This document shows positions 9,505-48,532 of a stretch of DNA of 64,000 nucleotides, in pieces. The notes below the pieces were generated by a model. It did no database searches. It was not told the origin of the DNA and worked only from the letters and a program-made list of their open reading frames with translations. This DNA is from an uncultured bacterium (GTDB lineage Bacteria; GCA-001730085), in assembly GCA_964565945.1 (NCBI GenBank), contig CAZMGY010000021.1, positions 44,300 through 108,299 of the forward strand. The letters are read 5' to 3'. Positions within the stretch are counted from its first letter, which is position 1, and every line of letters starts with the position of its first letter. The translations under genes were made by a program, and so were the position numbers.

Positions 9505-9696
9505 CCCCTTCTAGTAAGGGGAGTTGTTTGAAATAGAGGCTTTGCGCAAAGCTTGGGGAAACTTTAATTTATTGGTTTGATGGAAGCAAAGACAGGACAC
9601 AAGACTATATTTCACTGCTATTTGCATAACATTTTGATAAACAATGAAAAATACAGGTAGAATTGGAAATTCAAACAGCAGTATTTTGAGGTTTAA

Positions 9697-11933: not shown

Positions 11934-12146
11934 GTGTGACGTTTTGTGTTAAAAATGTGTGATGTTTTACTGTAACCGAATTAAGTAAAAATTCAGTTTA
12001 CGTCAACAACTTATTCTGCAAGGTAAGCTCACAAAGCGTTTCAGAAGATAGCAATTGTTAATAAATAGAGGGGAAGTGGCGGAGACTGAGGGATTCGTTT
12101 GTTGTTTTTTTGCCCTGTAACATACTGTTATGAAACAATAAAAATA

Positions 12147-12853: not shown

Positions 12854-13035
12854 CCATCCTTAATGATTGTGACGATGCCAGAAGCCCTCACAGTCTGATC
12901 TGCCTGTGACAGAACATATCGCCATATATCCATTACACACCATAATTACTTAATATTTTATTAACAACTCCCTTAAAAGCTACAGTGACAGCCATCTTTG
13001 TTTGCTGCAAAGCCGCATTGATCTGTGCGGCGGCA

Positions 13036-18075: not shown

Positions 18076-19144
18076 TATTATTTCATTTGAAGCCGCTATT
18101 GCGGAGTCAGAACAATATAAAAAACGTCATTTATTGCTAGGCAATGGTTTTAGTATTGGCTGTCGAGCTGACATATTTCATTATGAGTCTCTTTTTGGGG
18201 AAGCTGATTTTTCGGCAATTCCTGAGGCTAAACAGGTTTTTGAATCTTTACAGACACAGGATTTTGAAGTTGCAATTCGCGCACTTGAGAATGGTTCAAA
18301 AATTCTACCTATCTATGTGCCCAATGATGACGCAAGCGTTCAGGCAATGAGTAATCATGCTATTGCGCTTAAAGATTTGTTAGTTGCCACAATTGCTGGC
18401 AACCATCCTCCTAATCCTAATGCAATAGATGATCCAGAGTTTTGGGCTTGCCGACAGTTTTTAAGTTATTTCCTCGCTTCGGATAAGGGAGGACATGTCT
18501 TCACTCTAAACTATGACTTATTACTGTATTGGGCATTGATGCATGATGACAATCCATTTGATGAGGAAGTGGTGGAGCTGAACAAGAATGATGGGTTCGG
18601 AAATGATGAAGATGATCCAGAAGCGGATTATGTTCTCTGGCAAGGTGAGACCTCCGCGCATAGTGCAAATATACTTTTTCTGCACGGTGCACTTCATCTA
18701 TTTGACTCGGGTGCAGAGCTACAGAAATATACTTGGGTTCGTAAGGGTGAACCATTGGTGGATCAAGCGCGCACTGCAATAGCTGCGAATAAATTCCCTC
18801 TTTTTGTCGCGGAAGGAACAAGTACACAAAAGAAAAACAAAATTCGCCATAACGCATATCTTTACCAGTGTTTTAAGGTTCTGACAGCCAACGCACAGAC
18901 TGGCACGCACTGTTTTTTCATATTTGGACATTCGTTAGCTGATAGTGATGACCACATCCTAAAACGTCTTGGTAAAGGCCGTTTTAAGAAATTATATGTA
19001 GGTATTTTTGGTGATGCGGATACGCCAGAAAATAGGAATGTGATTGCACGCGCAAATGCTATCGCAGCACTTAGACATGATAGGTATCCTCTTGAGGTGG
19101 TGTTTTTCGATTCCTCATCCGCTAATGTTTGGGGGAATGATTAA
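18068..19144 (+). CDS. DUF4917 / SIR2-like domain protein embedded in the type I R-M operon
   Basis: Gly-rich 'LLLGNGFSIG', 'LFLHGALHLFD' and 'IFGHSLADSDDHIL' resemble the SIR2-like/DUF4917 arrangement (from memory, not searched). AGGAGG RBS and GTG at 18068; the track ORF starts at 18032. Overlaps hsdS and hsdR stops/starts. Confidence 0.6.
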   Translation: MPDIISFEAAIAESEQYKKRHLLLGNGFSIGCRADIFHYESLFGEADFSAIPEAKQVFESLQTQDFEVAIRALENGSKILPIYVPNDDASVQAMSNHAIALKDLLVATIAGNHPPNPNAIDDPEFWACRQFLSYFLASDKGGHVFTLNYDLLLYWALMHDDNPFDEEVVELNKNDGFGNDEDDPEADYVLWQGETSAHSANILFLHGALHLFDSGAELQKYTWVRKGEPLVDQARTAIAANKFPLFVAEGTSTQKKNKIRHNAYLYQCFKVLTANAQTGTHCFFIFGHSLADSDDHILKRLGKGRFKKLYVGIFGDADTPENRNVIARANAIAALRHDRYPLEVVFFDSSSANVWGND

Positions 19145-22100
19145 TGGCTTTGATTCCCAAATTCCAAGAAGAATACAGCGCGAAAATTCCAGCATTAACG
19201 CTGCTTCATAATCTTGGTTGGACGTTCTTATCACCCGAGCAAGCTTTATCCGCTCGCAATGGCAAAACCAGTGAGGTGGTTTTACGTGAAGTGTTGAGAG
19301 AAGAACTTCGAAAACGCCGTTTTACTTTTGCAGGGAAAGAACGCGTTTTTTCTGAAAATGCTATTGATAATGTTATTGCGGAACTATGCGCGCCAGCTTT
19401 GAACGAAGGCTTAGGTGTTGCTAATGAAAGAATATATAACCATTTGCTTTATGGTATATCGGTAAAAGAGTTTATTGACGGTAAGAAAGTAAATCCAACA
19501 ATCCAAATTATTGACTGGGACAATGTTGATAATAATAGTTTTCTTTTTACCGAAGAATTTAGTGTTTTAAGAACGGGTGAAGTTGAATCCCGTAGACCAG
19601 ATATTGTTTGTTTTGTGAATGGATTGCCATTTGCAGTGATCGAAGCAAAACGTCCTGATGGTCATACCAATAAGGGATTGACCATTGATGAAGGTATTTC
19701 CCAGAATATCCGCAATCAACGCAATGATGAAATCCCTCATTTATTTGCATACTCCCAACTTCTTTTTTCAATCAATGGGGCTGATGGTCGTTATGGCACG
19801 CAAGGTACATCAAAACCGTTTTGGGCACCTTGGCGCGAAGAAGATATTTCTGAAGGAGAATTTTATATCCTGAAAAATAAAGCATTGAGTTCTGATGCAA
19901 AAGATACACTGTTTTCGCATAGACCAAAGCAGGATCGTAAGTGGTATGAAGAGCTTATAGTTGGTGGCGAACTTGCCGTTACTGAACAAGACAAAATGCT
20001 CATAAGTCTTCTTTCTCCATCACGGTTGATTGAAATGACAAGATATTTTGTATTGTTCGATAAAAAAATAGGGAAAGTGGCAGCACGATATCAGCAAGTA
20101 TTTGGTATTAAGCGTCTGATCGAGAGAATTAATACAAAAGATAATAAGGGCGTGCGTCAGGGTGGTGTTATATGGCACACCACTGGCTCTGGTAAATCTT
20201 TTACCATGGTCTTCTTGTCGAAAGCTCTTATCTTGCATGGCTCATTGAAGCAGTGCCGTATCGTGGTCGTAACTGATCGTGTTGATTTGGAAAGCCAGTT
20301 AAGTACGACCTTTAGTACAGGCGGAGAACTTGCCAGCAAGAAGGATAAAGCAGCCGCTATTGCAACATCTGGAAGAATGTTAGCAGAACAGATTTCTAAA
20401 GGTAATGAGCGAATAATGTTTTCTATTATTAACAAATTTGCTGTCGCCGCCAAAATGCAAGAGTGTCATAACCTAAGCTCTGACATTATCGTTCTTATTG
20501 ATGAAGGACATCGTTCGCAAGGCGGTGAAAACTTTATCCGTATGCGCAATGCTCTGCCTAATGCAGCTTTTATTGCATTTACAGGAACGCCGTTGTTAAA
20601 AGATGATAAAACGGAAAATAAATTCGGCTCGATTGTTCATGCCTATACGATGCAAAGAGCAGTTGAAGACAAAGCTGTTACACCTCTGCTATATGAAGAA
20701 CGTATCCCTGATCTTGATGTAAATGAACGAGCGATTGATAGTTGGTTTGATCGGATTACAGAGGGTCTCACAGATGAGCAGAAGACGGATTTAAAAAAGA
20801 AATTTGCCAAGAAAGGACACCTTTATCAATCCGAAGATCGTATTCGTTTGATTGCTTATGATATAGCTAATCATTTTGTGAAGAATATTGATGATGGACT
20901 TAAGGGGCAGATTGCTTGTGATAGTAAATTATCAGCCATTAAATATAAGCAATTCATGGATGAGCTTGGTCTGTTTAAATCTGCGGTTGTAATGTCTGCG
21001 CCAGATACCAGAGAGGGCAACACAGATGTTGATGAAGCTACTATCCATGAGGTGGCTAAGTGGTGGAAGGAAAATGTAGGATCACAGGATGAGAAAAGTT
21101 ACACAAAAAATATTGTTAAGCGATTTGAGGAAGATAATGACCTTAAAATTATAATCGTAGTTGATAAGTTACTTACTGGATTTGATGAACCGAGAAATAC
21201 AGTTCTTTACATTGATAAGCCCCTCAAAGAGCACAGCCTGATTCAAGCTATAGCGCGAGTTAATCGTTTGCATGAGAAAAAGAAATTCGGTTTGCTTATT
21301 GATTATCGCGGTATTCTGGCAGAGCTTGATACCACAATAGCTAAATATCAGGATTTGGCTAGCCGTACTCAAGGTAGATTTGATATTGAAGACCTTGAAG
21401 GTCTCTATCAACAAATGAGCACCGAATATAAAAAACTACCGCGTTTGTATAAAGATTTATTAGCAATATTCAAGAATGTTAAAAATAAAGGCGATATTGA
21501 ACAGCTTCGTCAGGTTATAGTTCCAAAAGTACAAGAACAACATGGTGAAATGGTAGATATTAATTTAAAAGCACGTGAAGACTTCTATGATCGATTAAGT
21601 GAGTTTGCTAATTGTTTGAAAGTTGCTTTGCAATCAGCTAGTTTTTATGAAGATAAAAGCTTCACAGAACAGGACAGAAAGCACTACAAAGAAACTGTTA
21701 AACAATATTCATCATTGCGTCAACTTGCCAAGGCTGATGCGGGTGAGACAGTCGATTACGACGAATATGCCGAGCAAGTAAAGAAGCTGATGGATAAGCA
21801 TGTTGTCGGTGTGGAGGTTAAAGAACCTGATGGTGTTTATGAAGTAGGTAAGATGGGTAAATCTGATCCAAAAGACTGGTCAGAAGATAAAACTCGAAAC
21901 GAAACCGATATTATAAAAACTCGTATTACTCGCATGATAGAGCAAAGCTTGCGTGATGATCCTTATGCGCAAGAAGTTTTTTCTAAGCTACTTAAGCAGG
22001 TAATAGAGGAAGCAGAAACCTTGTTTGACCATCCGTTGAAGCAATACATGCTGTTTAAAGAATTTGAAGAAAAAGTCGAAAAACGTGAAGTCGATAGTTT

Positions 22101-22419
22101 GCCTGATAAGTTTGCAGATAATAAGCACGCACAAGCCTACTATGGTGTTTTGAAAATGTATGTTGGCGAAAACCTTTCTACCATAGATGAAGAACTATCT
22201 GACCGATGGGTGGGGCTTTCTTTCAATGTAGATGAGATTATTACGAATGCTATAGCCGAGCACTCAATAAATCCCCAAAACATTGAATCCGAAATTCGAA
22301 ACAAGCTACTTCCTATGATCTTTAGTGAGTGTAAGAAAGTAGGTTCAGGAATAGATCAGACTAAGGCAATAACTGAAAGAATTGTTCAGATTGTACGCGT
22401 AGGACTAAATCACTCATGA
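19144..22419 (+). CDS. hsdR: type I restriction enzyme R subunit (endonuclease/helicase)
   Basis: 1091 aa; helicase Walker A 'TTGSGKSFTM' and DEAD-box-like 'VLIDEGHRSQ'; start overlaps the upstream stop (TAATG). Confidence 0.92.
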   Translation: MALIPKFQEEYSAKIPALTLLHNLGWTFLSPEQALSARNGKTSEVVLREVLREELRKRRFTFAGKERVFSENAIDNVIAELCAPALNEGLGVANERIYNHLLYGISVKEFIDGKKVNPTIQIIDWDNVDNNSFLFTEEFSVLRTGEVESRRPDIVCFVNGLPFAVIEAKRPDGHTNKGLTIDEGISQNIRNQRNDEIPHLFAYSQLLFSINGADGRYGTQGTSKPFWAPWREEDISEGEFYILKNKALSSDAKDTLFSHRPKQDRKWYEELIVGGELAVTEQDKMLISLLSPSRLIEMTRYFVLFDKKIGKVAARYQQVFGIKRLIERINTKDNKGVRQGGVIWHTTGSGKSFTMVFLSKALILHGSLKQCRIVVVTDRVDLESQLSTTFSTGGELASKKDKAAAIATSGRMLAEQISKGNERIMFSIINKFAVAAKMQECHNLSSDIIVLIDEGHRSQGGENFIRMRNALPNAAFIAFTGTPLLKDDKTENKFGSIVHAYTMQRAVEDKAVTPLLYEERIPDLDVNERAIDSWFDRITEGLTDEQKTDLKKKFAKKGHLYQSEDRIRLIAYDIANHFVKNIDDGLKGQIACDSKLSAIKYKQFMDELGLFKSAVVMSAPDTREGNTDVDEATIHEVAKWWKENVGSQDEKSYTKNIVKRFEEDNDLKIIIVVDKLLTGFDEPRNTVLYIDKPLKEHSLIQAIARVNRLHEKKKFGLLIDYRGILAELDTTIAKYQDLASRTQGRFDIEDLEGLYQQMSTEYKKLPRLYKDLLAIFKNVKNKGDIEQLRQVIVPKVQEQHGEMVDINLKAREDFYDRLSEFANCLKVALQSASFYEDKSFTEQDRKHYKETVKQYSSLRQLAKADAGETVDYDEYAEQVKKLMDKHVVGVEVKEPDGVYEVGKMGKSDPKDWSEDKTRNETDIIKTRITRMIEQSLRDDPYAQEVFSKLLKQVIEEAETLFDHPLKQYMLFKEFEEKVEKREVDSLPDKFADNKHAQAYYGVLKMYVGENLSTIDEELSDRWVGLSFNVDEIITNAIAEHSINPQNIESEIRNKLLPMIFSECKKVGSGIDQTKAITERIVQIVRVGLNHS

Positions 22420-23165
22420 GGAATTTAGCTACACACAGGAATGGTTCAATTCAATATGGAGATACAGCCATTAATTTTTCTATTGAACCCAGAGCAACAG
22501 ATGCACCAAAAGTTTTAATAAAAGTACATCCAGATTGCCGCGTTGTAGCACTTGCACCACCGATGGCATCTCATGATGAAATTATGCAGGCGGTAAAGAA
22601 ACGAGCACGATGGGTTTGTAAACAAATGCGGTACTTTGATAAACAACGCGAAAATATTCTCCCGCGTCACTATGTTAGTGGCGAAAGTCATTTCTATCTT
22701 GGGCGTAGGCATCTATTAAAGGTTCAAGAAAATGCTCAAGATACTCCCAAGGTGAAGTTGCTACGGGGTGTTTTGGAAGTTCAAGTACGCAAAGTAAGCC
22801 CAGAAAAAATAAAAGCAATGCTTTTTGATTGGTATAGAGTTCGTGCTAAAGAAGTATTTGATCGTAGGCTAGAAGAAGTTGTTTCTAAAACATTGTGGGT
22901 AAATGATAAGCCATCTATTCACCTTCTTTCTATGCAGACGCAATGGGGGAGTTGCTCGCCGAAAGGTCAGTTGACAATTAATCCTCATTTGGTGAAAGCA
23001 CCAAGAGATTGTATTGATTATGTGCTACTTCATGAGCTTTGCCATATTGCAGAACATAATCATAGTGAACGGTTCTATCGGCTAATGAAGCAAGTTATGC
23101 CTCATTGGGAAAAAGTAAAAGAAAGACTCGATGGTATGGCTTACTTTTATTTGAACGATACTTAA
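22416..23165 (+). CDS. M48-family zinc metallopeptidase (DUF45/YgjP-like), R-M associated
   Basis: 249 aa; HExxH zinc motif in 'YVLLHELCHIAEHNHSERF'; ATGA overlap with the hsdR stop. Confidence 0.8.
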   Translation: MRNLATHRNGSIQYGDTAINFSIEPRATDAPKVLIKVHPDCRVVALAPPMASHDEIMQAVKKRARWVCKQMRYFDKQRENILPRHYVSGESHFYLGRRHLLKVQENAQDTPKVKLLRGVLEVQVRKVSPEKIKAMLFDWYRVRAKEVFDRRLEEVVSKTLWVNDKPSIHLLSMQTQWGSCSPKGQLTINPHLVKAPRDCIDYVLLHELCHIAEHNHSERFYRLMKQVMPHWEKVKERLDGMAYFYLNDT

Positions 23166-23283
23166 GGGTTTTCATTGATTACGCATTACTGGGAACTAAC
23201 GATTGCTTGATAAATGGCTATTCGCATAGTTTTTGTTAAAAATTGAGTGCTAACCAATAGCGGACATAAGCAAAGGAGATATC

Positions 23284-26200
23284 TTGGGGAAAAAAGAAGC
23301 AAGGCGCACTAAGTCAAAGTCAACACCGCGTCAAACAGGTGGGGCAGGATACGACTTCGAAGATTTGATTGCAGCCTGGATGATGGTGAAGATGCTGCGT
23401 GAGATTAGGTTGCCAGGTGTTGAGGAGTTTGGTACAGCGATTCAATGGCAAGCGGAAGTGTTAGGTTGGGAACAGATCGATGACCTTCTGGTTACATGTG
23501 TGGTTGAAGAAGAAAAGAAAAAGCAGCTAGCCATCTCTTGTAAAAGCAACATGCAAGTTAGTGGGTCTGGGCTTCCATTTGATTTTCTCAAAAATGCTTG
23601 GTCACTATGGATAAAAGGCGAGCCTTTTAATAAGGAAAATGATTGCATGATGTTGGTTCAGAAAGGCAGCAATCAAAATTTTTTTACTGCTTGGGCAGAC
23701 CTAAAATATTGGTGTTCTGAGGGCGATGTAGAAACGGCTCTAGCACGAATTACAGCTTCTCAGAAACATAGTAAAATATACAATGGCGTTAAGGCTCCTG
23801 ATAAAAGCAGTAATTATACAAACGAAGATACTATTGCGCTTATACGCAGTTTAGAAGTTATTCCTGCAGATTTTCATTTAGCTAGTTCGGAATACGAAGA
23901 CACTTCATTATCCCATTGTCGTGATCTTTTGCAGGATGGCTCTGAAGAGACTGCAAAAAAGCTATGGGACTGGCTTCTCAAGAAAGCTAAAGTCAAACGT
24001 ATCTCAGGTGGAACATTACAGCTATCAGAGTTGTGGCAAGAATTGGTTCCAGCATTTGATTTAAAAGACCATCCAAACTTTCTTTCATCATGGAAGTCTC
24101 TTAAAGCTATATCCGAAGAATATAAGAGATCAATCGAAATTGAATTGCCTAATGGTCATAGTGTCATAAGGCCTGCCGAAGAAGACCTGATAGAGCATCT
24201 TAGAGATGGTCCAATATGTATTGTATATGGTAGCTCTGGAAGGGGTAAATCGGCGGTTGTTAAATCTACTTTAGATAAGAAGCTATCTGATTGGAATCAG
24301 GTTTGGTTTTCTCCGGAAAACCTAGACTTAGCTTCAAGTGAAAGGACTCGCTCAGAAGTGGGATTGCTTAGACCTTTGCAGGATGTACTTGCTCACTCAT
24401 CGGAAGAAAAAAATGTCCTAATTATAGATTCTGCTGAGAGGATTAACCCCGATAGCAGAAAAATTGTAAAGTCGCTTATTTCCAACCTATTGATACACAA
24501 TGGCGAACAGAAGAGTCGTTTGAACTGGCGAGTTATCATTGTTGGGCAAACCGAGGCTTGGGCATCTGGCAATTTTCATGAAATTTCAGGACTCTCTTCT
24601 ATTCAGCCTATAGAAATTTCTTCCCTTGACCCTTCGGATGTCAGAGCAGCTTTGCATTCAAGCAATCACTTATCTTGGCTTGCTTCGGATAACGAAGCGC
24701 TTATAGCCTTAGGTAACTTGAAAACTTTGGCTTGGGTAATGCGAGCTGGAACCATTTTTCCAAAAGGGGGAATGAATAGCATATCGTTGCCTGCAATCGC
24801 TGATCGTTTATGGTCGTATTGGACAAAAGATAAAATAAAACTTCAGAATCTTCTGATGCAACTTGCTGAACGTGAAGCTCAATTTGAACGTAGCTTTCCT
24901 ATCAGTGGGTTTGGTATTGATGTAAGCCAAGCTCTTGATGAAGGTTTGGAATGCTTGCCACTACGAAAAAGAAAAGAGACTAATTCAATCGAGTTTGAGC
25001 ATGACCTGGGTGCTGATTGGGCAAGGTTTCAGCGTTTAAAAGAAATAAAAAATGACATAAGCTCTTGGGCACCATTTGCTAGCAACCCTCTCTGGCATAA
25101 TGCTTTGCGCATGATGGGGCAACTCCTATTACGAGAAAAAACTGAACAAGGAACACTATGGGATGTTGTTTATGATGAAGCAGAAAAAACAAAAGTTGAA
25201 AATCCTTTAGCAGCAGATATTCTCTTAGATTCTTTGTGCCTTGATCCATTTGCTGCGCATTATCTTAATGAGCGGTCGGATATACTTTTTGCAGATAACG
25301 GGGCTCGTTTAAACCGCTTATTAAAACGTTTTCATCATATAGCGACCGTTTCAAATGTCTCTAGCGAGTCCTTGGACATTGATCCCTCGCTAAAATTGTA
25401 TTTAGAAGACATGCAAAGGTTGCCAATCTATGGTCGTTGGCCACAAATTGCACAATTTCTTTCAGATCACAAAGAACAAGTTTCCAGCCTAATCTCACCA
25501 ACTATTTCAAAACTATGTGAGACTTGGCTTACAACAACACCTCTCTATCTTGATCCTGAGGCAAATACGCCGATGCCCTATAGAAAGGTATTTGCAGAGC
25601 TTGCTTTAAGCACGGTAAGGACTTTACAACTTGAGCAAAAGAAAGGGCACTTGTGGCTCACAGATGACAGCGAAAAGCCTCTTTATGGGGCAGCATTTGC
25701 GGCTGTAAACGATCTTCCTGACGAAGTCTGCGAATGGGCTTTAGAAATGGCCTGTAGAAGACCTTGCAAAAAAGAAATACCTGAAGCGCTTGCAGCCTAT
25801 CGAGAAGAAAGAAGAAAAGAACATAGAGAAAAATTGCGCACTGATAAGGCTTATCCTGAAAGGCACGAGCGTTTACGTTCAATGCCTTCCGGTATTTCAA
25901 GCCATAGAGATTTACCTCCATGGCCATTAGGGCCACAAGGTAGTGTAGATAATACTTTTCGAGATTATTGCTTGAACTCAAACTCCATGGCTAGGCTGAT
26001 GTATCTAAGGCCAGAAGTTGCAAGCGAGTGCCTTCTTGCAATGCTAATAGATTATTCGCGTAGCCCTCTCCGAGATGATTTAGGTCTAGTGTATAGTCAC
26101 ACAGGATACCCTACGGCATATTGGAAAAGTCCATTTTTCCAGTTTTTACAGTTGAATAGCACTATAGCCATGGATTCCCTTATTTCGCTCGTTAATTTTT

Positions 26201-28536
26201 GTACAGATCGATGGGCAGATGATTTTGAGAGCGATTATAGTCTAGAGGTAAGTCTACGAGATGGTCAAAAACAAAGTTTGAAAGGAAACGGACATGTTTT
26301 CTCCTGGTCTCAAGAAAGCTCCACATCTAACGGACAGCTCTACTGTGCGTTAGCAGCACTAGAAAAATGGATTTATATTGAAATTGATAAGGACGCAGAT
26401 GTAGAGCCTGCGCTCAAGAGACTTATCGAAAACTCAAATTCTGTTGCAATAATAGGCGTGCTCCTAAATGTCGGTAAATACAAACCAAGCTTATTTACAA
26501 GCGCATTACAACCTTTTTTAGGGGTATATGAATTCTATCAAGCCGATGACAACCGCCTTCTAGATGCCGGGCATTGGTATGATGCTGGGGCATGGCCGTG
26601 TGAGGGTGAAAAAATATTTGAAATGGCCAAAGAGTGGCACTTTGCTCCGCACCGGAAAATTCCGTTGCGGCAATTAGCTGTTCAACTTGCTCTCAGTGAT
26701 AAAGAGACAGCCTCTTTTATTAAGGAAGCTTCTGAAAGTTGGGAAACACATTCAGTCGAGGAAAAATATGATTTAGAGGTAAGGATATTAAAAGCTGAAC
26801 TTGATCCTGAAAATTATAAGCCAGAAAAAGACCAACAATCTGGGCAGACATTATTGAGGTGTTATTACCCAGACAAGCTACAGAAGGACATAGAAGATTT
26901 TCAGAAAAGAAAAAGTCCGAGATGGCATGCTGTTACTATACCTATTCAATGTGAAGAATTATTGGCTTCGTCTCATAACATTACTGATGAAGAGGCTGAG
27001 AGATTAGCTTCTGCACTCAATGTTGTTCCTATAGAAGAAGATGAAGAGAGCATCCTCGCGACAGAAGCGGCGATCGCAGCTACGTTGTTAATAAAGGCAC
27101 CTAGCTGGCTAGACAAAAACCCTGATCTTAAAAAGAAAACAAATGAAATTATTCAAAATATAATTTCTAGTATTGGAGACACCTTAGAATCTTTGAGAGC
27201 TACCGGACATCTTATGAGTGATAGGTCGCTTGCCTTTGCCACTCATGTTGTTGTTGAAGAATTTATAAACAACCCGTCCCATGATAGGGACGTAGATGCT
27301 TCTGTATTAAGAATTTTAACCAGTGGTGACAACCAGGCTGTCTTCATTTTGATGAATGCGGCTTATCAAAATAGAGATAAGCTAGGTGATCGCTGGTGGC
27401 GTCTCATACAAATATCAATCTTTTGTGCTGGACTTAATAGCCTTAGTCCGGGCTTTAGAGAAGATGAAGATAAATCGATTGAATTACGTTGGGCGCGTTG
27501 GTTGATATGGTTGCGCACCCGTGATTTAAACGTTTCAGTAAATGCAGAAGCTATTGACCCAATCGGATTAGCGGTTCGTGTGGATCGTTTAAAAATGGCT
27601 CGTATTAAACGGCTATTTGGAAAAGATACAGACGGACGTTTGCGTTACTATCATCGAGGGTTTTTTGGCCTTGAGACCTACACGTTGGATAAAATGTTTT
27701 CATGGATGCTGAGTGATCATGGGCAAGGGGCTGACAATAGTTCGGATGTGCGTCTCTTAACTCAAAAACTTTGGGTGTTCGAAGCTTGGAGAAAGCAAAA
27801 AAGCGAAGAAGCCAACGATGAAGATAATGACCGTGATAGCCTTCCAAGCGATTTAGGTTACTCGCTTCTTCAAAAGCTATCAAAGCTTATGCTGACTGCA
27901 CAAAAAGATGAAGCGTCTAAGATTTGGAAGCCGATACTTTCTATGGGCGTAGATGGTCATCATTCTATTGAGCATTTCATTGATGGGTGGCTGCTAGGAG
28001 TGGTTCAAACCAAAAATACAAACTCCCTTTCTCAGTTTTGGAGAGAATTAATTGAGTTTGCGCTCTTATCTCCCAACTGGTCTCCCAATAAATATTGGTA
28101 TAAAGGAGAAGAGTTATTTCGACATCTTTTAGGATTTGGCTTGATTAATCTTGCGGAGTTTGAAGGTGCTCAAAACATTATTTTCGAAATAAAGGATCTG
28201 TATAAACGTTGGGCTGATACACACCTTTCTCAGGAAGAGGAAAATATAGCAGGCTTTGCATATTTTCTTTCCTCTAAAGTGGGGGCACCTATTCGGTATG
28301 ATGGTCTGCTGTGGATCAGAGACTCCTTGCGACCTCCCAATCCTGCATATTGGCGTCGAATGGAAACCGGACGCTCTCTTGTTGATCTTTTGGATGTTAT
28401 CATTACCGAAGAAACTAAACAAATATCTTCAGATTCTGAGTTTCGCGATGCGTTATTGAGGGTTGCAGCACATTTGGCTGATAGGCAAGTTCCTATTGCA
28501 TTATTGTTGCAAGAGAAGATTCGCCAGGTGCATTAG
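23284..28536 (+). CDS. very large (1750 aa) P-loop NTPase of unknown function; candidate defense protein
   Basis: Single uninterrupted ORF, AAGGAG RBS and apparent TTG start; Walker A 'YGSSGRGKSAVVKS' near residue ~320 and Walker B-like 'VLIIDSAERI' ~60 aa later; long helical C-terminus; no family recognised by eye. Confidence 0.8.
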   Translation: MGKKEARRTKSKSTPRQTGGAGYDFEDLIAAWMMVKMLREIRLPGVEEFGTAIQWQAEVLGWEQIDDLLVTCVVEEEKKKQLAISCKSNMQVSGSGLPFDFLKNAWSLWIKGEPFNKENDCMMLVQKGSNQNFFTAWADLKYWCSEGDVETALARITASQKHSKIYNGVKAPDKSSNYTNEDTIALIRSLEVIPADFHLASSEYEDTSLSHCRDLLQDGSEETAKKLWDWLLKKAKVKRISGGTLQLSELWQELVPAFDLKDHPNFLSSWKSLKAISEEYKRSIEIELPNGHSVIRPAEEDLIEHLRDGPICIVYGSSGRGKSAVVKSTLDKKLSDWNQVWFSPENLDLASSERTRSEVGLLRPLQDVLAHSSEEKNVLIIDSAERINPDSRKIVKSLISNLLIHNGEQKSRLNWRVIIVGQTEAWASGNFHEISGLSSIQPIEISSLDPSDVRAALHSSNHLSWLASDNEALIALGNLKTLAWVMRAGTIFPKGGMNSISLPAIADRLWSYWTKDKIKLQNLLMQLAEREAQFERSFPISGFGIDVSQALDEGLECLPLRKRKETNSIEFEHDLGADWARFQRLKEIKNDISSWAPFASNPLWHNALRMMGQLLLREKTEQGTLWDVVYDEAEKTKVENPLAADILLDSLCLDPFAAHYLNERSDILFADNGARLNRLLKRFHHIATVSNVSSESLDIDPSLKLYLEDMQRLPIYGRWPQIAQFLSDHKEQVSSLISPTISKLCETWLTTTPLYLDPEANTPMPYRKVFAELALSTVRTLQLEQKKGHLWLTDDSEKPLYGAAFAAVNDLPDEVCEWALEMACRRPCKKEIPEALAAYREERRKEHREKLRTDKAYPERHERLRSMPSGISSHRDLPPWPLGPQGSVDNTFRDYCLNSNSMARLMYLRPEVASECLLAMLIDYSRSPLRDDLGLVYSHTGYPTAYWKSPFFQFLQLNSTIAMDSLISLVNFCTDRWADDFESDYSLEVSLRDGQKQSLKGNGHVFSWSQESSTSNGQLYCALAALEKWIYIEIDKDADVEPALKRLIENSNSVAIIGVLLNVGKYKPSLFTSALQPFLGVYEFYQADDNRLLDAGHWYDAGAWPCEGEKIFEMAKEWHFAPHRKIPLRQLAVQLALSDKETASFIKEASESWETHSVEEKYDLEVRILKAELDPENYKPEKDQQSGQTLLRCYYPDKLQKDIEDFQKRKSPRWHAVTIPIQCEELLASSHNITDEEAERLASALNVVPIEEDEESILATEAAIAATLLIKAPSWLDKNPDLKKKTNEIIQNIISSIGDTLESLRATGHLMSDRSLAFATHVVVEEFINNPSHDRDVDASVLRILTSGDNQAVFILMNAAYQNRDKLGDRWWRLIQISIFCAGLNSLSPGFREDEDKSIELRWARWLIWLRTRDLNVSVNAEAIDPIGLAVRVDRLKMARIKRLFGKDTDGRLRYYHRGFFGLETYTLDKMFSWMLSDHGQGADNSSDVRLLTQKLWVFEAWRKQKSEEANDEDNDRDSLPSDLGYSLLQKLSKLMLTAQKDEASKIWKPILSMGVDGHHSIEHFIDGWLLGVVQTKNTNSLSQFWRELIEFALLSPNWSPNKYWYKGEELFRHLLGFGLINLAEFEGAQNIIFEIKDLYKRWADTHLSQEEENIAGFAYFLSSKVGAPIRYDGLLWIRDSLRPPNPAYWRRMETGRSLVDLLDVIITEETKQISSDSEFRDALLRVAAHLADRQVPIALLLQEKIRQVH

Positions 28537-31625: not shown

Positions 31626-32351
31626 ATGAGTATTGCACAAGCCATTGAAAATTCGGTTAAATCCATGCCTTCTGGCCAGATTTTTGGCTATCAGGAGTTG
31701 CCTAGCTACGCTAAATCACCAGGGGCTGTGATTAAGGCGATTAGCCGTCTGGTGGCTGATAAGAGGTTGGAACGGTTTTCTAAGGGCAAGTTTTACGTAC
31801 CCAAAAAAGGCATGTTAGGTGCTAGAAAACCCTCAGATAGTGAGTTGATCCGTTCAATGTTGTACAAGGACGGGCGTTTGCGTGGTTATGTGACTGGCCT
31901 ATCTCTCTATAATCAACTGGGTCTTACAACGCAGGTGCCGCGCACAATTACGGTTGCCTATAACGGTGGTCGTCAGAAAAAAGAATATGGAACAATTCGT
32001 ATTAAGACGGTCGTTACACGTGTTCCGATTAAGGAAAAGGACGTTAAGCTTCTTCAATATTTGGACGCGCTTAAAGACATAAAAAAAATTCTAGATTCTG
32101 ATGTAAATCTTTCTCTTAAGATTATTCGCGGCTATATATCTAAGTTATCTGATCGTGAGCGTAGTCGTTTGGTGGAACTGGCGCTAAATTACTATAACCC
32201 TCAAGTCAGAGCATTGGTTGGCTTATTGTTCACAGATTTAAAACTCTCGGTTCCAAGCTCTTTGGCTCACTCACTTAACCCAACAACGACCTATAAGCTT
32301 AAGCTGGATCGCTCAATGTGGCCAATGGCCAAAGAATGGAATATCCAATAA
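31626..32351 (+). CDS. AbiEi-like antitoxin / regulator (partner of the AbiEii nucleotidyltransferase)
   Basis: 241-aa gene with GGAG RBS; stop overlaps the AbiEii start (TAATG). Assignment is mainly by operon partner; the sequence may equally be a DUF6088-type partner. Confidence 0.5.
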   Translation: MSIAQAIENSVKSMPSGQIFGYQELPSYAKSPGAVIKAISRLVADKRLERFSKGKFYVPKKGMLGARKPSDSELIRSMLYKDGRLRGYVTGLSLYNQLGLTTQVPRTITVAYNGGRQKKEYGTIRIKTVVTRVPIKEKDVKLLQYLDALKDIKKILDSDVNLSLKIIRGYISKLSDRERSRLVELALNYYNPQVRALVGLLFTDLKLSVPSSLAHSLNPTTTYKLKLDRSMWPMAKEWNIQ

Positions 32352-33151
32352 TGAATTTACATGAGGATGATGAAGCATTTGCAGAATTAGTCGCTGTAAC
32401 CGCTGAAACAATAGGCTTGCCGCAGGTCTATGTTGAAAAAGATTATTGGGTTACAAAAGCGCTTAAGAATTTATCAGAATCCAAGCATGTAGGTGAAGTG
32501 GTCTTTAAGGGTGGTACATCTTTATCCAAGGCCTATAGGTTAATTGATCGTTTTTCAGAAGATATTGATTTGGCTGTACTTGCAGGCGGCAAAGGTGATT
32601 CTGCACGTAAGAAACTACTTAAGAGCGTAGAGACTACTGCCAGCGAAGGCCTGATATGTGTGAAAGATGATGCACGGGAATCCAAAGGCTCAAAATTTCG
32701 TAAAACAGTTTATCAATATCCGCGAAGTATAGAAGGTGGTGACTTTGGGCAAGCATCTCCTGAATTATTGATCGAGGTTAATACATTTACCAATCCTGAG
32801 CCTTTTGAAACGCGGGAGCTGCAAACATTTATTGCCGAAGTTCTTACTGAAAAAGGCGAAACAGATTTAATAGCACAATATGTGCTTGAAGGTTTTCCTG
32901 TAAATGTATTGTCGGTCAGGCGTACCCTTGTTGAGAAAATGCTTGGTGTAATTAAAGATAGTTATCATGAAGACCCCGTTGCAAGGATGTCTGTTCGAAT
33001 TCGACACATATATGATGTTTGTCTGATATTAAAGAATGATGAATATCGCGACTTTATTGCTAGCGATGAATTTATGTCGCTATGTAATATTTGTATTGAG
33101 GATGAAAAGGCAGGGTTTTTGCCCCCTCTGATTGTTTCGATACACCATTAG
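32351..33151 (+). CDS. nucleotidyltransferase AbiEii/AbiGii toxin family protein (DUF1814), apparently frameshifted near the 3' end
   Basis: 'VVFKGGTSLSKAYRLIDRFSEDIDL' is the DUF1814/AbiEii hallmark; a second frame (33106-33303) continues protein-like after a T5C5 tract. Confidence 0.7.
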   Translation: MNLHEDDEAFAELVAVTAETIGLPQVYVEKDYWVTKALKNLSESKHVGEVVFKGGTSLSKAYRLIDRFSEDIDLAVLAGGKGDSARKKLLKSVETTASEGLICVKDDARESKGSKFRKTVYQYPRSIEGGDFGQASPELLIEVNTFTNPEPFETRELQTFIAEVLTEKGETDLIAQYVLEGFPVNVLSVRRTLVEKMLGVIKDSYHEDPVARMSVRIRHIYDVCLILKNDEYRDFIASDEFMSLCNICIEDEKAGFLPPLIVSIHH

Positions 33152-33306
33152 TAGATGCGCCATTATTTTTCAGATTTAAGGATTGGAGTTCCTCTCTTAA
33201 TAATATATATACCGGCGCATTTTCAGATTTGGTGTATGGTGATCTACCAGCAATGGACGAGATTGAAGAAACGTTTAATTTTATCAAAGAGAATTTGAAG
33301 TAATTA

Positions 33307-33627
33307 CTAAAAAATCCTTGATATTGGGAATTCACTATCTAATAAATTTAAAATATCTTGTGGCAGATATTCCATTGGATCGTCATAGCCAATTCGATAT
33401 TGAGGATTATCAACTGGCATATATTCAATTCCATCTTTGCAAACTGAGTAGATGATTGTGTTATGCGGAGACCACCGCGAATATTTCACGGCGTAACCGG
33501 CATCTTCTAGAACCTGCGCAATGATCGGTGTTTTAACGTCGCCATCGCCATCATCAAAACCAAACTTAGAAAAAGCCTCGCTCCAGTGATAAGAATTGCC
33601 GCAGGATTTACATTTCAAATCGTTCAT
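33307..33627 (-). CDS. hypothetical protein
   Basis: 106-aa ORF with a 'CKSCGN' Cys pair; no recognised family. Confidence 0.35.
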   Translation of the reverse strand: MNDLKCKSCGNSYHWSEAFSKFGFDDGDGDVKTPIIAQVLEDAGYAVKYSRWSPHNTIIYSVCKDGIEYMPVDNPQYRIGYDDPMEYLPQDILNLLDSEFPISRIF

Positions 33628-33641
33628 ATTCTTTCCTTTCC

Positions 33642-34160
33642 TTAAATCTCCGGCTCAAAATCGATATCTTGAGCAGGGGTATCAAAGCCCATGCCTTGCT
33701 CCTGGCTTTTGCCGTGGGATTTACTGCGCTCTGCAACGCGGGCTTTCTTCTTCTCATGGGATTTTAGGTGCGATAAATCGCGGATTAACTTGGCACGCTC
33801 TTCCTCATGTTTTTTATGTAGCGAGTTAAACTGTATTTGTAGTTTCTGGCGCATTTCTAATTGCTTATGGATCAGCTCTTCACGCTCTGCTTGGTCGCGC
33901 TTATGCGCCTGCCAGGTTTCACCGTCATTAGCTTTGCGCTGCTTCCAATAGGAGCCATTTAGCTTGTCCCATAGACCTTTAAAACCTTTGCGTATCTGCG
34001 ATACCCTAAGGGCTTCTTCCTTTTGCCAGCGGGATTCCTGATAGGCGTTTTGCGCGGCTCGGTCTTTTCGGTGCTGCAATGTCATAGCGGCCTTGGTTTT
34101 AAGTAGAGGCACTAATTCTTTATTGTGATCTTTATCCAGCTCGCCGATGAATTTCTTCAA
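33642..34160 (-). CDS. mobilization relaxase, C-terminal charged portion (split gene)
   Basis: Highly charged K/R/E/Q-rich coiled-coil-like sequence; its frame stays open upstream to ~34278 and overlaps the end of the N-terminal relaxase ORF in a +1 frame. Confidence 0.5.
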   Translation of the reverse strand: MKKFIGELDKDHNKELVPLLKTKAAMTLQHRKDRAAQNAYQESRWQKEEALRVSQIRKGFKGLWDKLNGSYWKQRKANDGETWQAHKRDQAEREELIHKQLEMRQKLQIQFNSLHKKHEEERAKLIRDLSHLKSHEKKKARVAERSKSHGKSQEQGMGFDTPAQDIDFEPEI

Positions 34161-34272
34161 TAGGGTTGATGTTTTTCCACTGATCTTATTCTTAACTGTT
34201 TCAACGCTCGGCAGGTCTTCTGCTTTGCCAAGACGTTTTTCTATTTTTTTTTCTTCGCTGTGAGCTGGCGGG

Positions 34273-34962
34273 TTAGAGAATAAACCTCACCGTGTATATA
34301 TCTATAGCTACAAAGCCGCGCTTATCTCCTTTGGCCAGCCAGTAGCCAGATTCCAGGAGCGCTTGCTCAAAGCTTTTCTTATCATCCGACCTTGCCCAGC
34401 ATTGCTGTAAGTTGGCCTTGATGGTCTTGGGGTTTTGATTTGTGCGCGCCGCTTGCTGCCACTCAGCCCTTGTGAAGTTGAGCGGGTTTTTCTGGCTCTT
34501 ATCAATAAAGCCTTTGGGCAGTTGCCAACCATGATCTAAATAAAGCTGTTTTGATATATCTTTGAGCTTATTTTTAAAAAAGGGCTGATCAATTGCCTTC
34601 ATTTCTTTGGCATCAATGCGGCTCCAAACACAATGCGCATGACGGCGGCCATGTTTTTCATGAAAGACAATGACGCGGGGCTGATTTTCAAGCCCCAGCT
34701 TTTTCTCTATTTTTGTTAGTGCATCCTCAAATGCAGCTACCAGCACTTTTTCATTTTGTGGTGGTGATAGCGATAGGGAGAACATGAAACGTGAACATCT
34801 TGTACCTTTGCTAATCGCATGGATTTCATTAAGTGCGCCGCCTATTGTTTCACTGGCAAAACCCGATACTTCATGCACCCGCACATGCTCATTTTGCTCA
34901 CCATTCATGAGGTGCTTTGCCATTTGGCGTGCGCCGCCGCGTTTACTCGCCTTGATGATCAT
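34273..34962 (-). CDS. mobilization relaxase N-terminal nuclease domain (MobA/MobL-like)
   Basis: Start 'MIIKASKRGGARQMAKHLMNGEQ...' and three-His motif 'VIVFHEKHGRRHAHCVWSRID' typical of MOB relaxases. Confidence 0.65.
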   Translation of the reverse strand: MIIKASKRGGARQMAKHLMNGEQNEHVRVHEVSGFASETIGGALNEIHAISKGTRCSRFMFSLSLSPPQNEKVLVAAFEDALTKIEKKLGLENQPRVIVFHEKHGRRHAHCVWSRIDAKEMKAIDQPFFKNKLKDISKQLYLDHGWQLPKGFIDKSQKNPLNFTRAEWQQAARTNQNPKTIKANLQQCWARSDDKKSFEQALLESGYWLAKGDKRGFVAIDIYTVRFIL

Positions 34963-35353
34963 CTTCTTTTTCCTGCAAACCCAGAGCGCGGGTGAGGGTA
35001 TTTCTAATCCAGTGAACCGAGCGGCTGGCCTCATTTAAGGCCTTTAGCACATCTATATTCACAGGCAGGGAACCTGAATTTGCAGCCCTAGCAAGCTGAT
35101 TGATATTGTTAGCTATACGAGATTGCCCAAAGGCAGCTAGCAGTCTGGCTAATTCTTTTTGGTCTTTGACGGGCTTCTTGCCCCGTGTTCTATTTTTGGG
35201 GATTTCATCACCAAAGAGAAGAAAGCGAATATAGGCAGATAGCGGGCGATCACCTGCGGCCAGCTCTAATGTCTTTCTTTCATCCTCAGTGAAGCGAATA
35301 CAATATGGGGAGGGGTATGTATATTTTTGATCCGTAGGGGTTTTTTTAGACAT
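34943..35353 (-). CDS. mobC: mobilization protein MobC-like
   Basis: 'LARLLAAFGQSRIANNINQLARAANSG' resembles the MobC signature; sits immediately upstream of, and overlaps, the relaxase gene. Confidence 0.55.
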   Translation of the reverse strand: MSKKTPTDQKYTYPSPYCIRFTEDERKTLELAAGDRPLSAYIRFLLFGDEIPKNRTRGKKPVKDQKELARLLAAFGQSRIANNINQLARAANSGSLPVNIDVLKALNEASRSVHWIRNTLTRALGLQEKEDDHQGE

Positions 35354-35783
35354 TTTTCTGTCCCCCTGTTGCCGGAAGGGCAGAGTTACTGGTAGAATAC
35401 GCATCCTTTGAAGAGCGGACTCCCTCTATTGCAGATAGTAGCGCCTCTTCTTGTAGCGGATCAGCAGCAATATCATAGCAGTTACCAGCGGTAGATAGCG
35501 TTGGCAACCAGCCCCCGCTACCAAATATAATCTATACCACAGTAGCCTTTAAGCTTATTGTGGTTTTTTTGTTTATGCTCAAATTCGGTTTGGGCTAACA
35601 CTGTGCTAACAAAATATTTTTACTCTTCTTTATTGTTATCTCACCCACTCTTTAATTTTTAACCTTTTTGTAACTTCAATTTATTAAATTCCTTATTACA
35701 AAAAAACTTTTAAATAAAAAGTCCCCCTGAGTAGATATGATATAATCACTTAAATTATGCACTGTTATAAGGATTAAACTTTA

Positions 35784-36038
35784 ATGAACATAGAAACTTT
35801 AAATCTATTAATTAAAGATGGCGAAGGCATTCGTGTCAAATTTAAGGAGAAATATTCTTCTAAAATAGCCCGTGATATAGTCGCATTTTCACATACTAAA
35901 GGCGGATATATTTTGCTTGGGGTTACGGAAAAGCTTATTGAAAGAAAATATCCCTTTTTTTTTCAACAGAACCCCCTAAATCCCCCTTATCAGAGGGTAT
36001 CTTATGTTTGTTTAAGAACTAAGTCAGCACCAAGTTAA
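35784..36038 (+). pseudogene. truncated AlbA_2/Schlafen-like (divergent AAA) domain gene fragment
   Basis: 84 aa; 'EGIRVKFKEKYSSKIARDIVAFSHTKGGYILLGVTE' resembles the N-terminus of AlbA_2-domain proteins, but the ORF stops after ~80 aa; flanked by 22-bp direct repeats. Confidence 0.35.
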
Positions 36039-45260: not shown

Positions 45261-46019
45261 TCAGTAAATACAGCCTGTTCGATGTAAAACTCTCTTGCGC
45301 CGTACTTTGATCCGCCACTTGTGCCACTTGCGCCAAGGATAGCGCCTCCACCACTTGCGCCAAAACACGCGCCGATTGGCCTTTTCGAAGTTATAGTTTA
45401 ATTGTTCTTTAACAGCGTCCACCGTTTTGCTCCCATAATGATGAATACAAACATCCGTTGTCACTGCCGTTTTTAAACCACAAGACTGCATCCTTAAAAA
45501 AAAGTCTTCATCCTCATATTTGCCCCAGCGAAAATTTTCATCAAAAAGACCCACCTCATCAAAAAGCGTCTTTCTTGCAAACAAAGCAACCCCACGAAAT
45601 TCATCTTCGAACACAGTGCCCTCAAATACTTTACGATAACGCTTATTTTCTTGCTCCAAGTCGTAATCCATGGAACCTTCTTTTATCGCTGGAGAAACCA
45701 ACGCATAGGCATGCGATTGATAAAAGTGCTTAAGGCGCAGCAACCAATCACAAGGCACGTCAATATCATTGTTCACAATGCACACAAACTCACCACGTGC
45801 CGCACGCACACCTTGATTCCATGCTGCCGCACAACCTTGGTTCTTTTCGTTACGAATAAGTATTGCCTCAACACCTTCTAAATAATGTTGCGTTTCCTCC
45901 TGAGAGCCATTATCAATTAAAATCAACTCCAAGGACTCAAGAGGCGTCTTGAGGATCGAAACGATGCTTTGCTCTGTCCATTCCAAGTTATCTTTAACCG
46001 CCATAACCACCGATATCAT
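45261..46019 (-). CDS. glycosyltransferase family 2
   Basis: 'ILIDNGSQEETQ' and 'VCIVNNDIDV' fit GT2 DxD-type motifs; start overlaps the upstream gene stop. Confidence 0.65.
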   Translation of the reverse strand: MISVVMAVKDNLEWTEQSIVSILKTPLESLELILIDNGSQEETQHYLEGVEAILIRNEKNQGCAAAWNQGVRAARGEFVCIVNNDIDVPCDWLLRLKHFYQSHAYALVSPAIKEGSMDYDLEQENKRYRKVFEGTVFEDEFRGVALFARKTLFDEVGLFDENFRWGKYEDEDFFLRMQSCGLKTAVTTDVCIHHYGSKTVDAVKEQLNYNFEKANRRVFWRKWWRRYPWRKWHKWRIKVRRKRVLHRTGCIY

Positions 46020-48532
46020 AACGCCAACTCCACATCCTGATCCACATAACCTGCATCGAGCAAGAGTGCTTGTTTTTGGGCATATAAATAATTTCGGTGC
46101 GTCAAAATATGCTGCGCATAGATGGGACATTTTTTTTGATAGGCTTTGAAAAAGGCTATCTCATGAAGAAGCAATAAACCTTCGGGAAAAGCACCCCACA
46201 TTTGTGAAATATTCTTTAACAACTGTCGTTGCGTCAAAGCACCGTTCAAGCGAACATGCCCATGATCTATTAAGTAAAACGTCCATTTGTGCTCGAAACT
46301 TTTAAGCACCAAGATATTGTCAGGCGTAAGATCATTGTGAAAAACATCCTTAGCATGCAAATCCCCAATAAAATCCCCAAGGTGACTCATAAACTGCAGT
46401 CTTTCTTTTTCGGTTTTGAGTGAACTGTAAAAAAATTTATCCGCATTTTGACTATCTGCCAAATAACGCATCACCAAGATACGCTTACGATAAAGATAAG
46501 CAATAGGCTTAGGAACTCGAACGCCAGCAAAAAAAAGGTTCACCGAATGTTGCCACTCGCGATGCATTTGCCCAATTTTCTTTAAAGACATACCCTTAAT
46601 TTGTTTGCAACACAGGTGTCCCGTCAGGCTTAACTCGTGAAACACACGATAGGAGTGACTTTGTTTCAAAATATGCTCAGCACCAACATAGTCGGCTGAA
46701 CGAACAAGATTGGGAAGTTGAGCAAAAACACGTTTATAGCGAGGCATCCACTCGCCAATCATATTTCTTTGAACTTGAGCAATCTTGAGTGGGTACACGC
46801 GCAAAAAAGGTTTTTGATTGGCACATATTTTTTGAGAGATTCTATCAATATTTTCAAAGTACTTGCGCCAATGATGTGGAAAAAAGTTACGTTCCTTTTG
46901 GTATTGATTTAAAAAATAAAATTTTTCCGCCAAGGACAAAGCATCGCCAATAGAGCTATAAAGATAAACAAAGTTCATGACGACATTGTTAAGCGATATG
47001 TGTTCTACAAAATGAACCCGATGCAAATCGATAACATAAAACCATCTTTGCCCTTTGTCGTCATCCACTAATATGTTCGCGACATCTAAGTCCCGATGAT
47101 AAAAACCGTGATTATGCATATGCGCCATAAAATCTGCAAACTGCTTAATGATAGCACGCCGTTCTAAAACAGTTTTTTTCTTAAAGGTCTCACGATACTC
47201 CAAACCATCTTTCATAGGCATCATATCTTCAACAATAAAAATACTTTCTTGAACGACTCCAAACCTTCTTCGTTCTGCATACAAAATAGGGGTAGGTGTC
47301 AATATCCTTCTATGCTTTAATTGCCAAGAGGTCTTCCACTCGGTAAATCCTTTGGCTTTTTGTTTAAAAGTTTTAAGTTTATCTTTAAACCGTTTGAACA
47401 AATACACCTTAACAACTAATGGGTACGTCACTCCTTTGTATTCGTAAGAGCGCCTAAGCACCTGGTGATAATCCGATTGACGTATAGATTCGCCCACACA
47501 AATCGTTTGATCCATCACATCTCGTTCAATCATATGCAGCAGGTTGGGGGGGTAACCTTCGTTACCTATAAAGTTCCATCCATGTTTATTTTCGCACACA
47601 TGAGGCAATATATCATTCAAATGAGACAAGCCTTCGTGAAGAGGACAGCCACGCAAATGCCAGTAGATCAACCGCCAATAGGTTTGAGACTTAGACGAAA
47701 CCACGCCATGAAACACAGCATTCACAGCATAACGAAAGAAAAGCCATTGTTTAATAAAACGTAAAGTCCCCGCTTTAAAACCGCGCCGCCTCAAAAAAAG
47801 GTAAAGACTTTTGTGGTACTCTATCCGCGAAGCTAAGGGATACTTTTTCGCACTCTGTCCAGAATGATGAACAACCGTGACCTGAGGCAAAAACATAACC
47901 CGATAACCTTGCCGATTCAAACGCCAACACAAGTCGGTTTCTTCCATATAAAAAAAGTAACCTTCGTCATAACCTTGCATAGTATGAAAGATCTCTTTAC
48001 GAATACAAAAACAAGCCCCGACAAGACTCTCAACTTTTATAGGTTGAGAGTAAGTTTTTCGTTTATGAGGAAATTTTTTGGGGTGCAAAAATCTTAAAAT
48101 ATTTTTGTTGAGCAATAAAGATGCTATCGACGGATAATTGTCCACACTATTTCTCTTACGACCTTGAGCATCAACAAAGGCGGGCCCACAAGCGCCCACA
48201 TCGGGGTTGTCTTTTAAAAACCGAATCATCAATTCAATACTTTTCGGCAAAACCCTGGTATCGACATTCAGAAAAATGAGATATTCCCCTTTGGCCTTAC
48301 GAGCGGCCTTATTGCAAGCTTTAGCAAACCCATAGTTGGTTGTATTTTGAATCCAGAGGATCTTCTCACTCTCTTTAAGTGCAACATAGGGATCATCGTT
48401 AGAAGCATTGTCGATCACAATTACTTCATAAGACAACTCAGTCTGTGCTGATCGAATCGCTTGCAAGCATTCTTTCAGCAGCAGTGCAGAATTAAAGTTA
48501 ACAATAATAATAGAAATATCACATTTCTTCAT
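46016..48532 (-). CDS. fusion protein: N-terminal GT2 glycosyltransferase + C-terminal lipopolysaccharide-kinase-like domain(s)
   Basis: 838 aa; N-terminus 'ISIIIVNFNSALLLKECLQ...VIVIDNASND' is GT2; C-terminal part has two kinase-like catalytic loops, 'FYHRDLDVANILVDD' and 'VFHNDLTPDNILVL'. Confidence 0.65.
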   Translation of the reverse strand: MKKCDISIIIVNFNSALLLKECLQAIRSAQTELSYEVIVIDNASNDDPYVALKESEKILWIQNTTNYGFAKACNKAARKAKGEYLIFLNVDTRVLPKSIELMIRFLKDNPDVGACGPAFVDAQGRKRNSVDNYPSIASLLLNKNILRFLHPKKFPHKRKTYSQPIKVESLVGACFCIRKEIFHTMQGYDEGYFFYMEETDLCWRLNRQGYRVMFLPQVTVVHHSGQSAKKYPLASRIEYHKSLYLFLRRRGFKAGTLRFIKQWLFFRYAVNAVFHGVVSSKSQTYWRLIYWHLRGCPLHEGLSHLNDILPHVCENKHGWNFIGNEGYPPNLLHMIERDVMDQTICVGESIRQSDYHQVLRRSYEYKGVTYPLVVKVYLFKRFKDKLKTFKQKAKGFTEWKTSWQLKHRRILTPTPILYAERRRFGVVQESIFIVEDMMPMKDGLEYRETFKKKTVLERRAIIKQFADFMAHMHNHGFYHRDLDVANILVDDDKGQRWFYVIDLHRVHFVEHISLNNVVMNFVYLYSSIGDALSLAEKFYFLNQYQKERNFFPHHWRKYFENIDRISQKICANQKPFLRVYPLKIAQVQRNMIGEWMPRYKRVFAQLPNLVRSADYVGAEHILKQSHSYRVFHELSLTGHLCCKQIKGMSLKKIGQMHREWQHSVNLFFAGVRVPKPIAYLYRKRILVMRYLADSQNADKFFYSSLKTEKERLQFMSHLGDFIGDLHAKDVFHNDLTPDNILVLKSFEHKWTFYLIDHGHVRLNGALTQRQLLKNISQMWGAFPEGLLLLHEIAFFKAYQKKCPIYAQHILTHRNYLYAQKQALLLDAGYVDQDVELAL

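Follow-up and report, generated by a model that had tools for sequence, protein, structure and literature searches.

Two Small Indels Interrupt the Relaxase Gene of an Apparently Decaying Integrative Mobilizable Element at tRNA-Met

The relaxase gene of a mobilization module in a 64,000-nt stretch of DNA from an uncultured bacterium (contig CAZMGY010000021.1; the whole stretch is hereafter called the window) is spread over three reading frames, rather than two, by a pair of small indels lying about 50 nt apart. In all probability it represents an ordinary, recently inactivated pseudogene that arose by two small slippage mutations within a decaying integrative mobilizable element (IME). Together with mobC it forms the DNA-processing module of this IME, which is about 32 kb long and sits at the 3′ end of a tRNA-Met gene. 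A first-pass annotation of the window had described a relaxase divided between two overlapping frames and had offered two explanations, a frameshift pseudogene or a programmed +1 shift; it is the pseudogene that the comparison with related loci supports.

The mobC-Relaxase Module

The gene mobC (34943–35353, minus strand) begins with an ATG at 35353, ends with the TAA at 34945–34943 and encodes an apparently intact relaxosome accessory protein of 136 aa, which matches Pfam MobC with 32.4 bits, also has a NikA-like match and shares 95% identity with the equally long MobC of contig L001. It overlaps the start of the relaxase gene by 20 nt, and in 81 of 85 loci mobC immediately precedes the relaxase. 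The relaxase itself (33642–34962, minus strand; MobA/VirD2-like) contains the nuclease domain PF03432 at residues 23–146, scoring 59.1 bits and thus above the gathering threshold of 24.6, so that the module proposed in the first-pass annotation is confirmed by profile matches to both of its proteins. The three-histidine motif noted there (HEKHGRRHAHCVW, H101-x6-H108-x-H110) is also correct, and it is invariant in 14 homologues as well as in the relatives from a Sphingobium plasmid and from pTF4.1.

Across the aligned members of the relaxase clade no invariant tyrosine was found in the first ∼260 residues. Invariant in the clade is His17, within the sequence A-x-H-L-x-N-x-E-x-N-E-H, at what we take to be roughly the position of the catalytic tyrosine in RP4 TraI and R1162 MobA. 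A histidine nucleophile has reportedly been described for MobM, and by analogy His17 may act as the nucleophile of this relaxase. The match to NCBIfam NF041893, the MOBP equivalog TraI/MobA(P), is weak and falls below the curated threshold (30.3 bits against a cut-off of 250), which would make the protein only a distant relative of TraI/MobA(P), and a PDB sequence search with the family profile returned zero matches, so that no relative of solved structure is detectable by sequence. The relaxase belongs to a divergent, little-studied clade of the PF03432 superfamily. Its relatives come mostly from marine gammaproteobacterial metagenome bins, and literature searches returned no description of either the clade or the element family.

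Three Reading Frames and Two Lesions

From the homologous start codon, ATG at 34962, a first frame (frame A, 34273–34962, minus strand) runs through 229 codons, including the nuclease domain and its histidine motif, to a TAA at 34275–34273, as the first-pass annotation had stated. Its last seven codons (TVRFIL*) are out-of-frame read-through beyond the first lesion. The C-terminal ∼200 codons of the gene (IEKRLGK...DFEPEI*) lie in frame C (33642–34243, minus strand; stop codon at 33644–33642), and in every full-length homologue the C-terminus is collinear with them. This part had been assigned to the +1 frame and described as open from ∼34278 to 33642; frame and end are right, but the frame is already open from 34286. 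Frames A and C overlap over GGTTTATTCTC, the ∼11 nt reported earlier.

Between the two lies a third frame that had escaped notice. Frame B (34241–34294, minus strand), the true frame between the lesions, comprises 17 codons whose translation (34294–34244) reads HGEVYSLTRQLTAKKKK, followed by a TAG at 34243–34241. At the nucleotide level it is near-identical to the intact gene of L001, and it holds the GEVYSLTRQ block that is invariant in the relaxase family, the invariant positions in a 14-sequence alignment being G224, E225, V226, Y227, L229, R231, Q232 and K238.

When frames A, B and C were joined by hand, undoing both indels, a product of 439 codons free of other stops was obtained and used as search query. 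Its best match is the intact relaxase P0001 (92% identity), and more than 100 homologues of 424–455 aa span it end to end, most of them with 100% query coverage. The junction in the joined translation, GFVAIDIHGEVYSLTRQLTAKKK(K/E)IEKRLGK, follows P0001 residue for residue in the protein alignment. The idea that the two annotated ORFs are pieces of one relaxase of ∼440 aa is therefore well founded. Two outcomes that would have spoken against it did not occur: the homologues continue past ∼230 aa, and what the C-terminal ORF encodes is the normal C-terminus of the relaxase family.

The alignment to intact relaxases recommended in the first-pass annotation located not a single +1 junction but two indels, of +2 and −1 nt, which interrupt the ∼440-aa ORF in the window. 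They were placed by nucleotide alignment to L001 and L002, the contigs encoding P0001 (88% identity). Lesion 1 (34295–34301, minus strand) is an ATATATA run with an extra TA relative to intact relatives, which have GATATTCAC or GATATACAT. Where L001 reads GAT ATT CAC, the window reads GATATATACAC, that is GATAT[AT]ACAC with the two bracketed bases in excess. Lesion 2 (34244–34252, minus strand) is an A9 homopolymer in which one base has been lost from the A6-G-A3 of L001, shifting the reading from frame B to frame C; AAGAAAAAAGAAATA in L001 corresponds here to AAGAAAAAAAAATA in the window or, in its wider context, AAGAAAAAAGAAATAG to AAGAAAAAAAAATAG. No A run longer than 7 was found at this lysine-rich site among the related loci. 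Were the gene intact, the two sites would read GATATACAC and an in-frame A/G tract.

Both indels have the form of classic slipped-strand products. We infer that the relaxase was knocked out by two independent events of this kind, one probably duplicating a TA within (TA)n and the other removing 1 nt to leave A9. Because of the two lesions, translation from the normal start ends at 34273 and yields a protein of 229 aa, which lacks the GEVYSLTRQ block and the entire C-terminal half. More generally, an apparent case of two overlapping frames may conceal two indels and a third frame.

Timing of the Probable Inactivation

Comparison of the repaired relaxase with those of L001, L006 and L007 gave dN/dS values of 0.09–0.11 (0.06–0.08 for the N-terminal and 0.11–0.17 for the C-terminal half), next to 0.07–0.09 for pairs of intact genes. 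As nearly all of the divergence arose under purifying selection and no further stops have accumulated, a dN/dS of ∼0.1 suggests that inactivation was recent, a low value that would also fit a relaxase still in use. Relaxase loss is not rare in the family, since 4 of 84 relatives (L008, L034, L036 and L075) contain in-frame stops of their own.

Alternative Explanations for the Split Gene

The split relaxase was found only in the window and in a near-twin, L003, a Logan contig from SRR19984992, which codes for an identical 229-aa N-terminal product, shows 3 SNPs and no gaps against the window over 11,269 nt and carries both indels in identical form. This contig bears most directly on the possibility that the gene is in truth intact and that both indels are sequencing or assembly errors in repeat tracts, which we regard as unlikely. 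The two lesions do lie in low-complexity runs (ATATATA and A9), that is in error-prone sequencing contexts, which counts against a pseudogene, and the repaired ORF is otherwise perfect, with its low dN/dS. However, two non-identical assemblies share both indels, the Logan assembly having been built independently and reading the same at both sites, which argues against an artefact, even if L003 and the window may go back to one sample or to closely related ones. Moreover, sequencing platforms do not typically insert 2 nt into a TA run of 7 nt, the island also carries a substitution-type nonsense mutation (CAA to TAA) in its recombinase and an indel in AbiEii, and the flanking chromosome has long, tightly packed ORFs.

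If the lesions are real, the fragments might still have a function. The 229-aa product retains the whole PF03432 domain and, judged from this, might have kept nicking activity; it could then be a stand-alone nickase working with MobC, while expression of the C-terminal ORF (TTG at 34160, 172 aa) would be independent of it. A separate downstream ORF of 147 aa does exist in the gene calls of L003. Such an organization is nevertheless found in none of more than 100 proteins and 84 loci, the invariant block 224–238 would be missing from both products, and the downstream ORF would start only ∼37 residues past the junction, at a TTG, so that we hold a functional split to be very unlikely. Recoding, by a ribosomal +1 frameshift at the 11-nt overlap or by transcriptional slippage on A9, appears extremely unlikely. 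Runs such as A9 are known slippage sites, long enough for RNA polymerase to slip and so bring part of the transcripts back into the second frame, and an SD-like GGTGAGG stands 6 nt upstream of CTC TAA, loosely resembling the prfB shift site. A direct shift from frame A to frame C at the overlap, as first envisaged, would however skip the GEVYSLTRQ block, exchanging HGEVYSLTRQLTAKKK for out-of-frame residues with the loss of eight invariant positions. Two separate shifts are required and not one, and the first of them (+2 or −1 within 34321–34276) has no recognisable slippery heptamer. Genuine programmed shifts are conserved across homologues; here, the relaxase lies in a single tblastn frame in all 84 other loci (relatives at 44–92% identity), none of which is shifted or shows a long run of A here, and the shift is therefore neither conserved nor programmed.

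A variant of these ideas would treat (TA)3.5 and A9 as reversible switches, with replication slippage reverting the TA tract and transcriptional slippage bypassing the A9 tract, such that a sub-population still makes full-length relaxase and the island remains mobilizable at a low rate. We see hardly any chance for it. Frameshifts in poly(A) tracts are reported to be partly rescued by transcriptional slippage in insect endosymbiont genomes, and the loss of 1 nt giving A9, where an extra A would restore the frame, resembles them; the TA insertion ∼50 nt upstream differs in not being a homopolymer and lies beyond rescue by slippage on the A run. An inactivated relaxase thus remains our strongly preferred reading, and the two ORFs should be annotated together, under one label, as a single relaxase pseudogene.

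Borders and Integration of the Island

The left-hand end of the island lies in a tRNA-Met gene (anticodon CAT; 3287–3364, plus strand), the 3′ end of which contains the attL core at 3352–3364; an Rfam search returned this tRNA as its sole match. The right-hand end is the attR core CCCCCGCTACCAA (35512–35524, plus strand), a duplicate of the tRNA-Met 3′ end. From these 13-bp cores the island extends from ∼3364 to 35524. Around the core, a three-way alignment shows the expected arrangement of attL, attR and attP. The island of the window is circularly permuted in L001: positions 106–4507 of L001 match window 7749–3352 and its positions 4495–6380 match window 35524–33642, the two segments overlapping by 13 nt. 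The attP junction is likewise present in L006, L019, L021 and L027. In L024, the region upstream of mobC (about 2290–2590) has two tRNA-Met 3′-end cores ∼100 nt apart, one of them within a full tRNA-like sequence, which points to tandem att sites, or remnants of them, at the same target.

The circular form has the gene order T4CP, two small ORFs, serine recombinase, mobC, relaxase, AbiEii with its partner, and ArdA. The VirD4/TraG-type coupling protein gene (T4CP; 5474–7138, minus strand), for which the first-pass annotation gave correct coordinates, had there been called distant. It looks so only because the element is integrated, and in the circular form it adjoins the module and belongs to it. 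With 554 aa, the same length as in L001, and Pfam matches to T4SS-DNA_transf (184 bits) and TraG-D_C, it is apparently intact.

A large serine recombinase (3320–5011, minus strand; Resolvase and Zn_ribbon_recom domains) adjoins attL. It lies in a single frame and is a pseudogene with a premature TAA at 4480–4478, where L001 has CAA; the recombinases of L006 (654–2471), L019, L021 and L027 are intact, with ∼607 aa. L001 and L002 carry a different CAA-to-TAA nonsense mutation (L001 3712–3714, compared with window 4478–4480), and the integrase has thus been inactivated independently in two close lineages, although L001 is in the circular (attP) configuration. The recombinase ORF also spans the att core, the last ∼55 codons of the intact relatives lying beyond attP, towards mobC. 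The C-terminus is therefore exchanged upon integration, and in the window the protein ends in ...VAGEGFEPSTFGL* inside the tRNA, while the detached tail segment beside mobC retains 70% protein identity. Such an arrangement could amount to an integration-dependent switch of integrase form.

Cargo Genes and Host

Further decay is seen in the AbiEii toxin gene (32351–33303, plus strand), a pseudogene in which a T run near 33121 has lost 1 nt, so that the last ∼40 codons are read in a different frame; its partner gene (DUF6088, 31626–32351) looks intact. Pfam assigns to the remaining cargo a VWA protein, a tyrosine-integrase-like ORF, type I R-M genes, DUF4917, a YgjP peptidase, a STAND-like NTPase of 1750 aa and ArdA, and a SEC-C/Y4jL protein is known from the precomputed Pfam annotation of L003. 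The first-pass annotation had listed no other T4SS genes, and indeed no mating-pore (VirB/Tra) proteins were detected in Pfam scans of island ORFs of at least 90 aa, seven of which had no match of any kind.

Several of these genes deserve separate mention. A 430-aa ORF with DUF6538 and Phage_int_SAM_5 matches (10641–11933, minus strand) lies mid-island beside Pfam-negative ORFs (8174–13563) and might mark a second, nested element. The defence cargo occupies 14734–28536 (plus strand), in the order hsdS fragment, hsdM, hsdS, DUF4917, hsdR, YgjP-like peptidase and STAND/AAA NTPase, the domain matches of the last being weak. Beginning 12 nt past the relaxase stop, an ORF of 106 aa with a CxxC motif (MNDLKCKSCGNSYHW...; 33307–33627, minus strand) has no match in Pfam or NCBIfam; a similar one follows the relaxase in L031 and is absent from L001.

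The chromosomal part of the window encodes an 838-aa glycosyltransferase-kinase fusion (46016–48532, minus strand), whose best named relative, at 41%, is from a PVC-group bacterium of the bryozoan Bugula neritina. The host appears to be from a poorly sampled lineage, unlike the mostly gammaproteobacterial bins that carry the island relatives.

Search for an Origin of Transfer

The first-pass annotation had proposed to look for oriT in 35354–35780. The outer part of this interval, 35525–35780, is chromosomal flank outside the element, and in the island-side sequence of 158 nt between attR and mobC (35354–35511, minus strand) no oriT was identified. These 158 nt are conserved in ∼26 relatives and correspond to the recombinase tail (∼55 codons) of the circular-form relatives; since they encode this tail and substitutions fall mainly at third codon positions, their conservation reflects mostly coding constraint. 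Inverted-repeat scans of 35300–35800 and of the L001 junction gave weak or imperfect repeats alone, and RNAalifold found no consensus structure in the region upstream of mobC. Two candidates were considered and dismissed. The k-mers most shared upstream of mobC proved to be the tRNA-derived att core and recombinase-tail coding sequence, and a hairpin of 7–8 bp over the mobC Shine-Dalgarno sequence, seen in several relatives, differs in register between them and is absent from the window. A block TATCTACC, which aligns with TATCCTGC in L012, bears what we take to be a resemblance to MOBP nic sites; because it is part of a coding sequence and varies at third positions, we do not claim it as nic.

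Element Class and Comparison With Known Systems

In intact relatives, a single MobA/VirD2-like relaxase of ∼440 aa, aided by MobC, would nick the excised circle, and the VirD4-type coupling protein would then pass the DNA to the mating pore of a helper element. The first-pass annotation had seen the island as a mobilizable element in need of such a helper T4SS. Its gene content bears this out; with relaxase and recombinase both broken, however, the copy in the window is more likely immobilised and decaying than still active as a mobilizable element. Most likely it has become fixed in the chromosome, its mobilization and excision activities presumably lost, and it should be annotated as a decayed IME at tRNA-Met. 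The relaxase split as such is ordinary gene decay. Of greater interest is probably the wider element family, with its attP-spanning serine integrase, its tRNA-Met target and its poorly typed, Tyr-less clade of relaxases.

The nearest typed relative of the relaxase is that of pTF4.1, a plasmid of Acidithiobacillus ferrooxidans, and MOB-suite assigns this relaxase to MOBP. As in the window, mobC is immediately upstream of the relaxase gene there and overlaps it, and the N-terminal nuclease domain carries the HxxxxxxHxH motif, identity amounting to 36% over the first 237 aa; in contrast, the C-terminal half of the window relaxase is different and shorter, and its gene is broken. The relative from the Sphingobium plasmid, 42% identical, is not recognised as a relaxase by MOB-suite.

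At the level of the whole element, the comparison is with IMEs that have their own relaxase and a VirD4 coupling protein but no mating pore, as defined in a review (PMC5704250). The island resembles these in having a site-specific recombinase at one end and att repeats derived from a tRNA 3′ end, in combining a relaxase, the accessory protein MobC and a VirD4-type T4CP with no T4SS genes found for mating-pair formation, and in its defence cargo of type I R-M, STAND NTPase, AbiE and ArdA. It differs in its integrase, which is a large serine recombinase with an ORF that extends across attP. The genes for excision and mobilization are not intact, the recombinase being interrupted by its TAA and the relaxase by two frameshifts. 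Decayed IMEs are commonly reported (PMC5704250), and it is these that the window copy, having neither an intact relaxase nor an intact recombinase, resembles.
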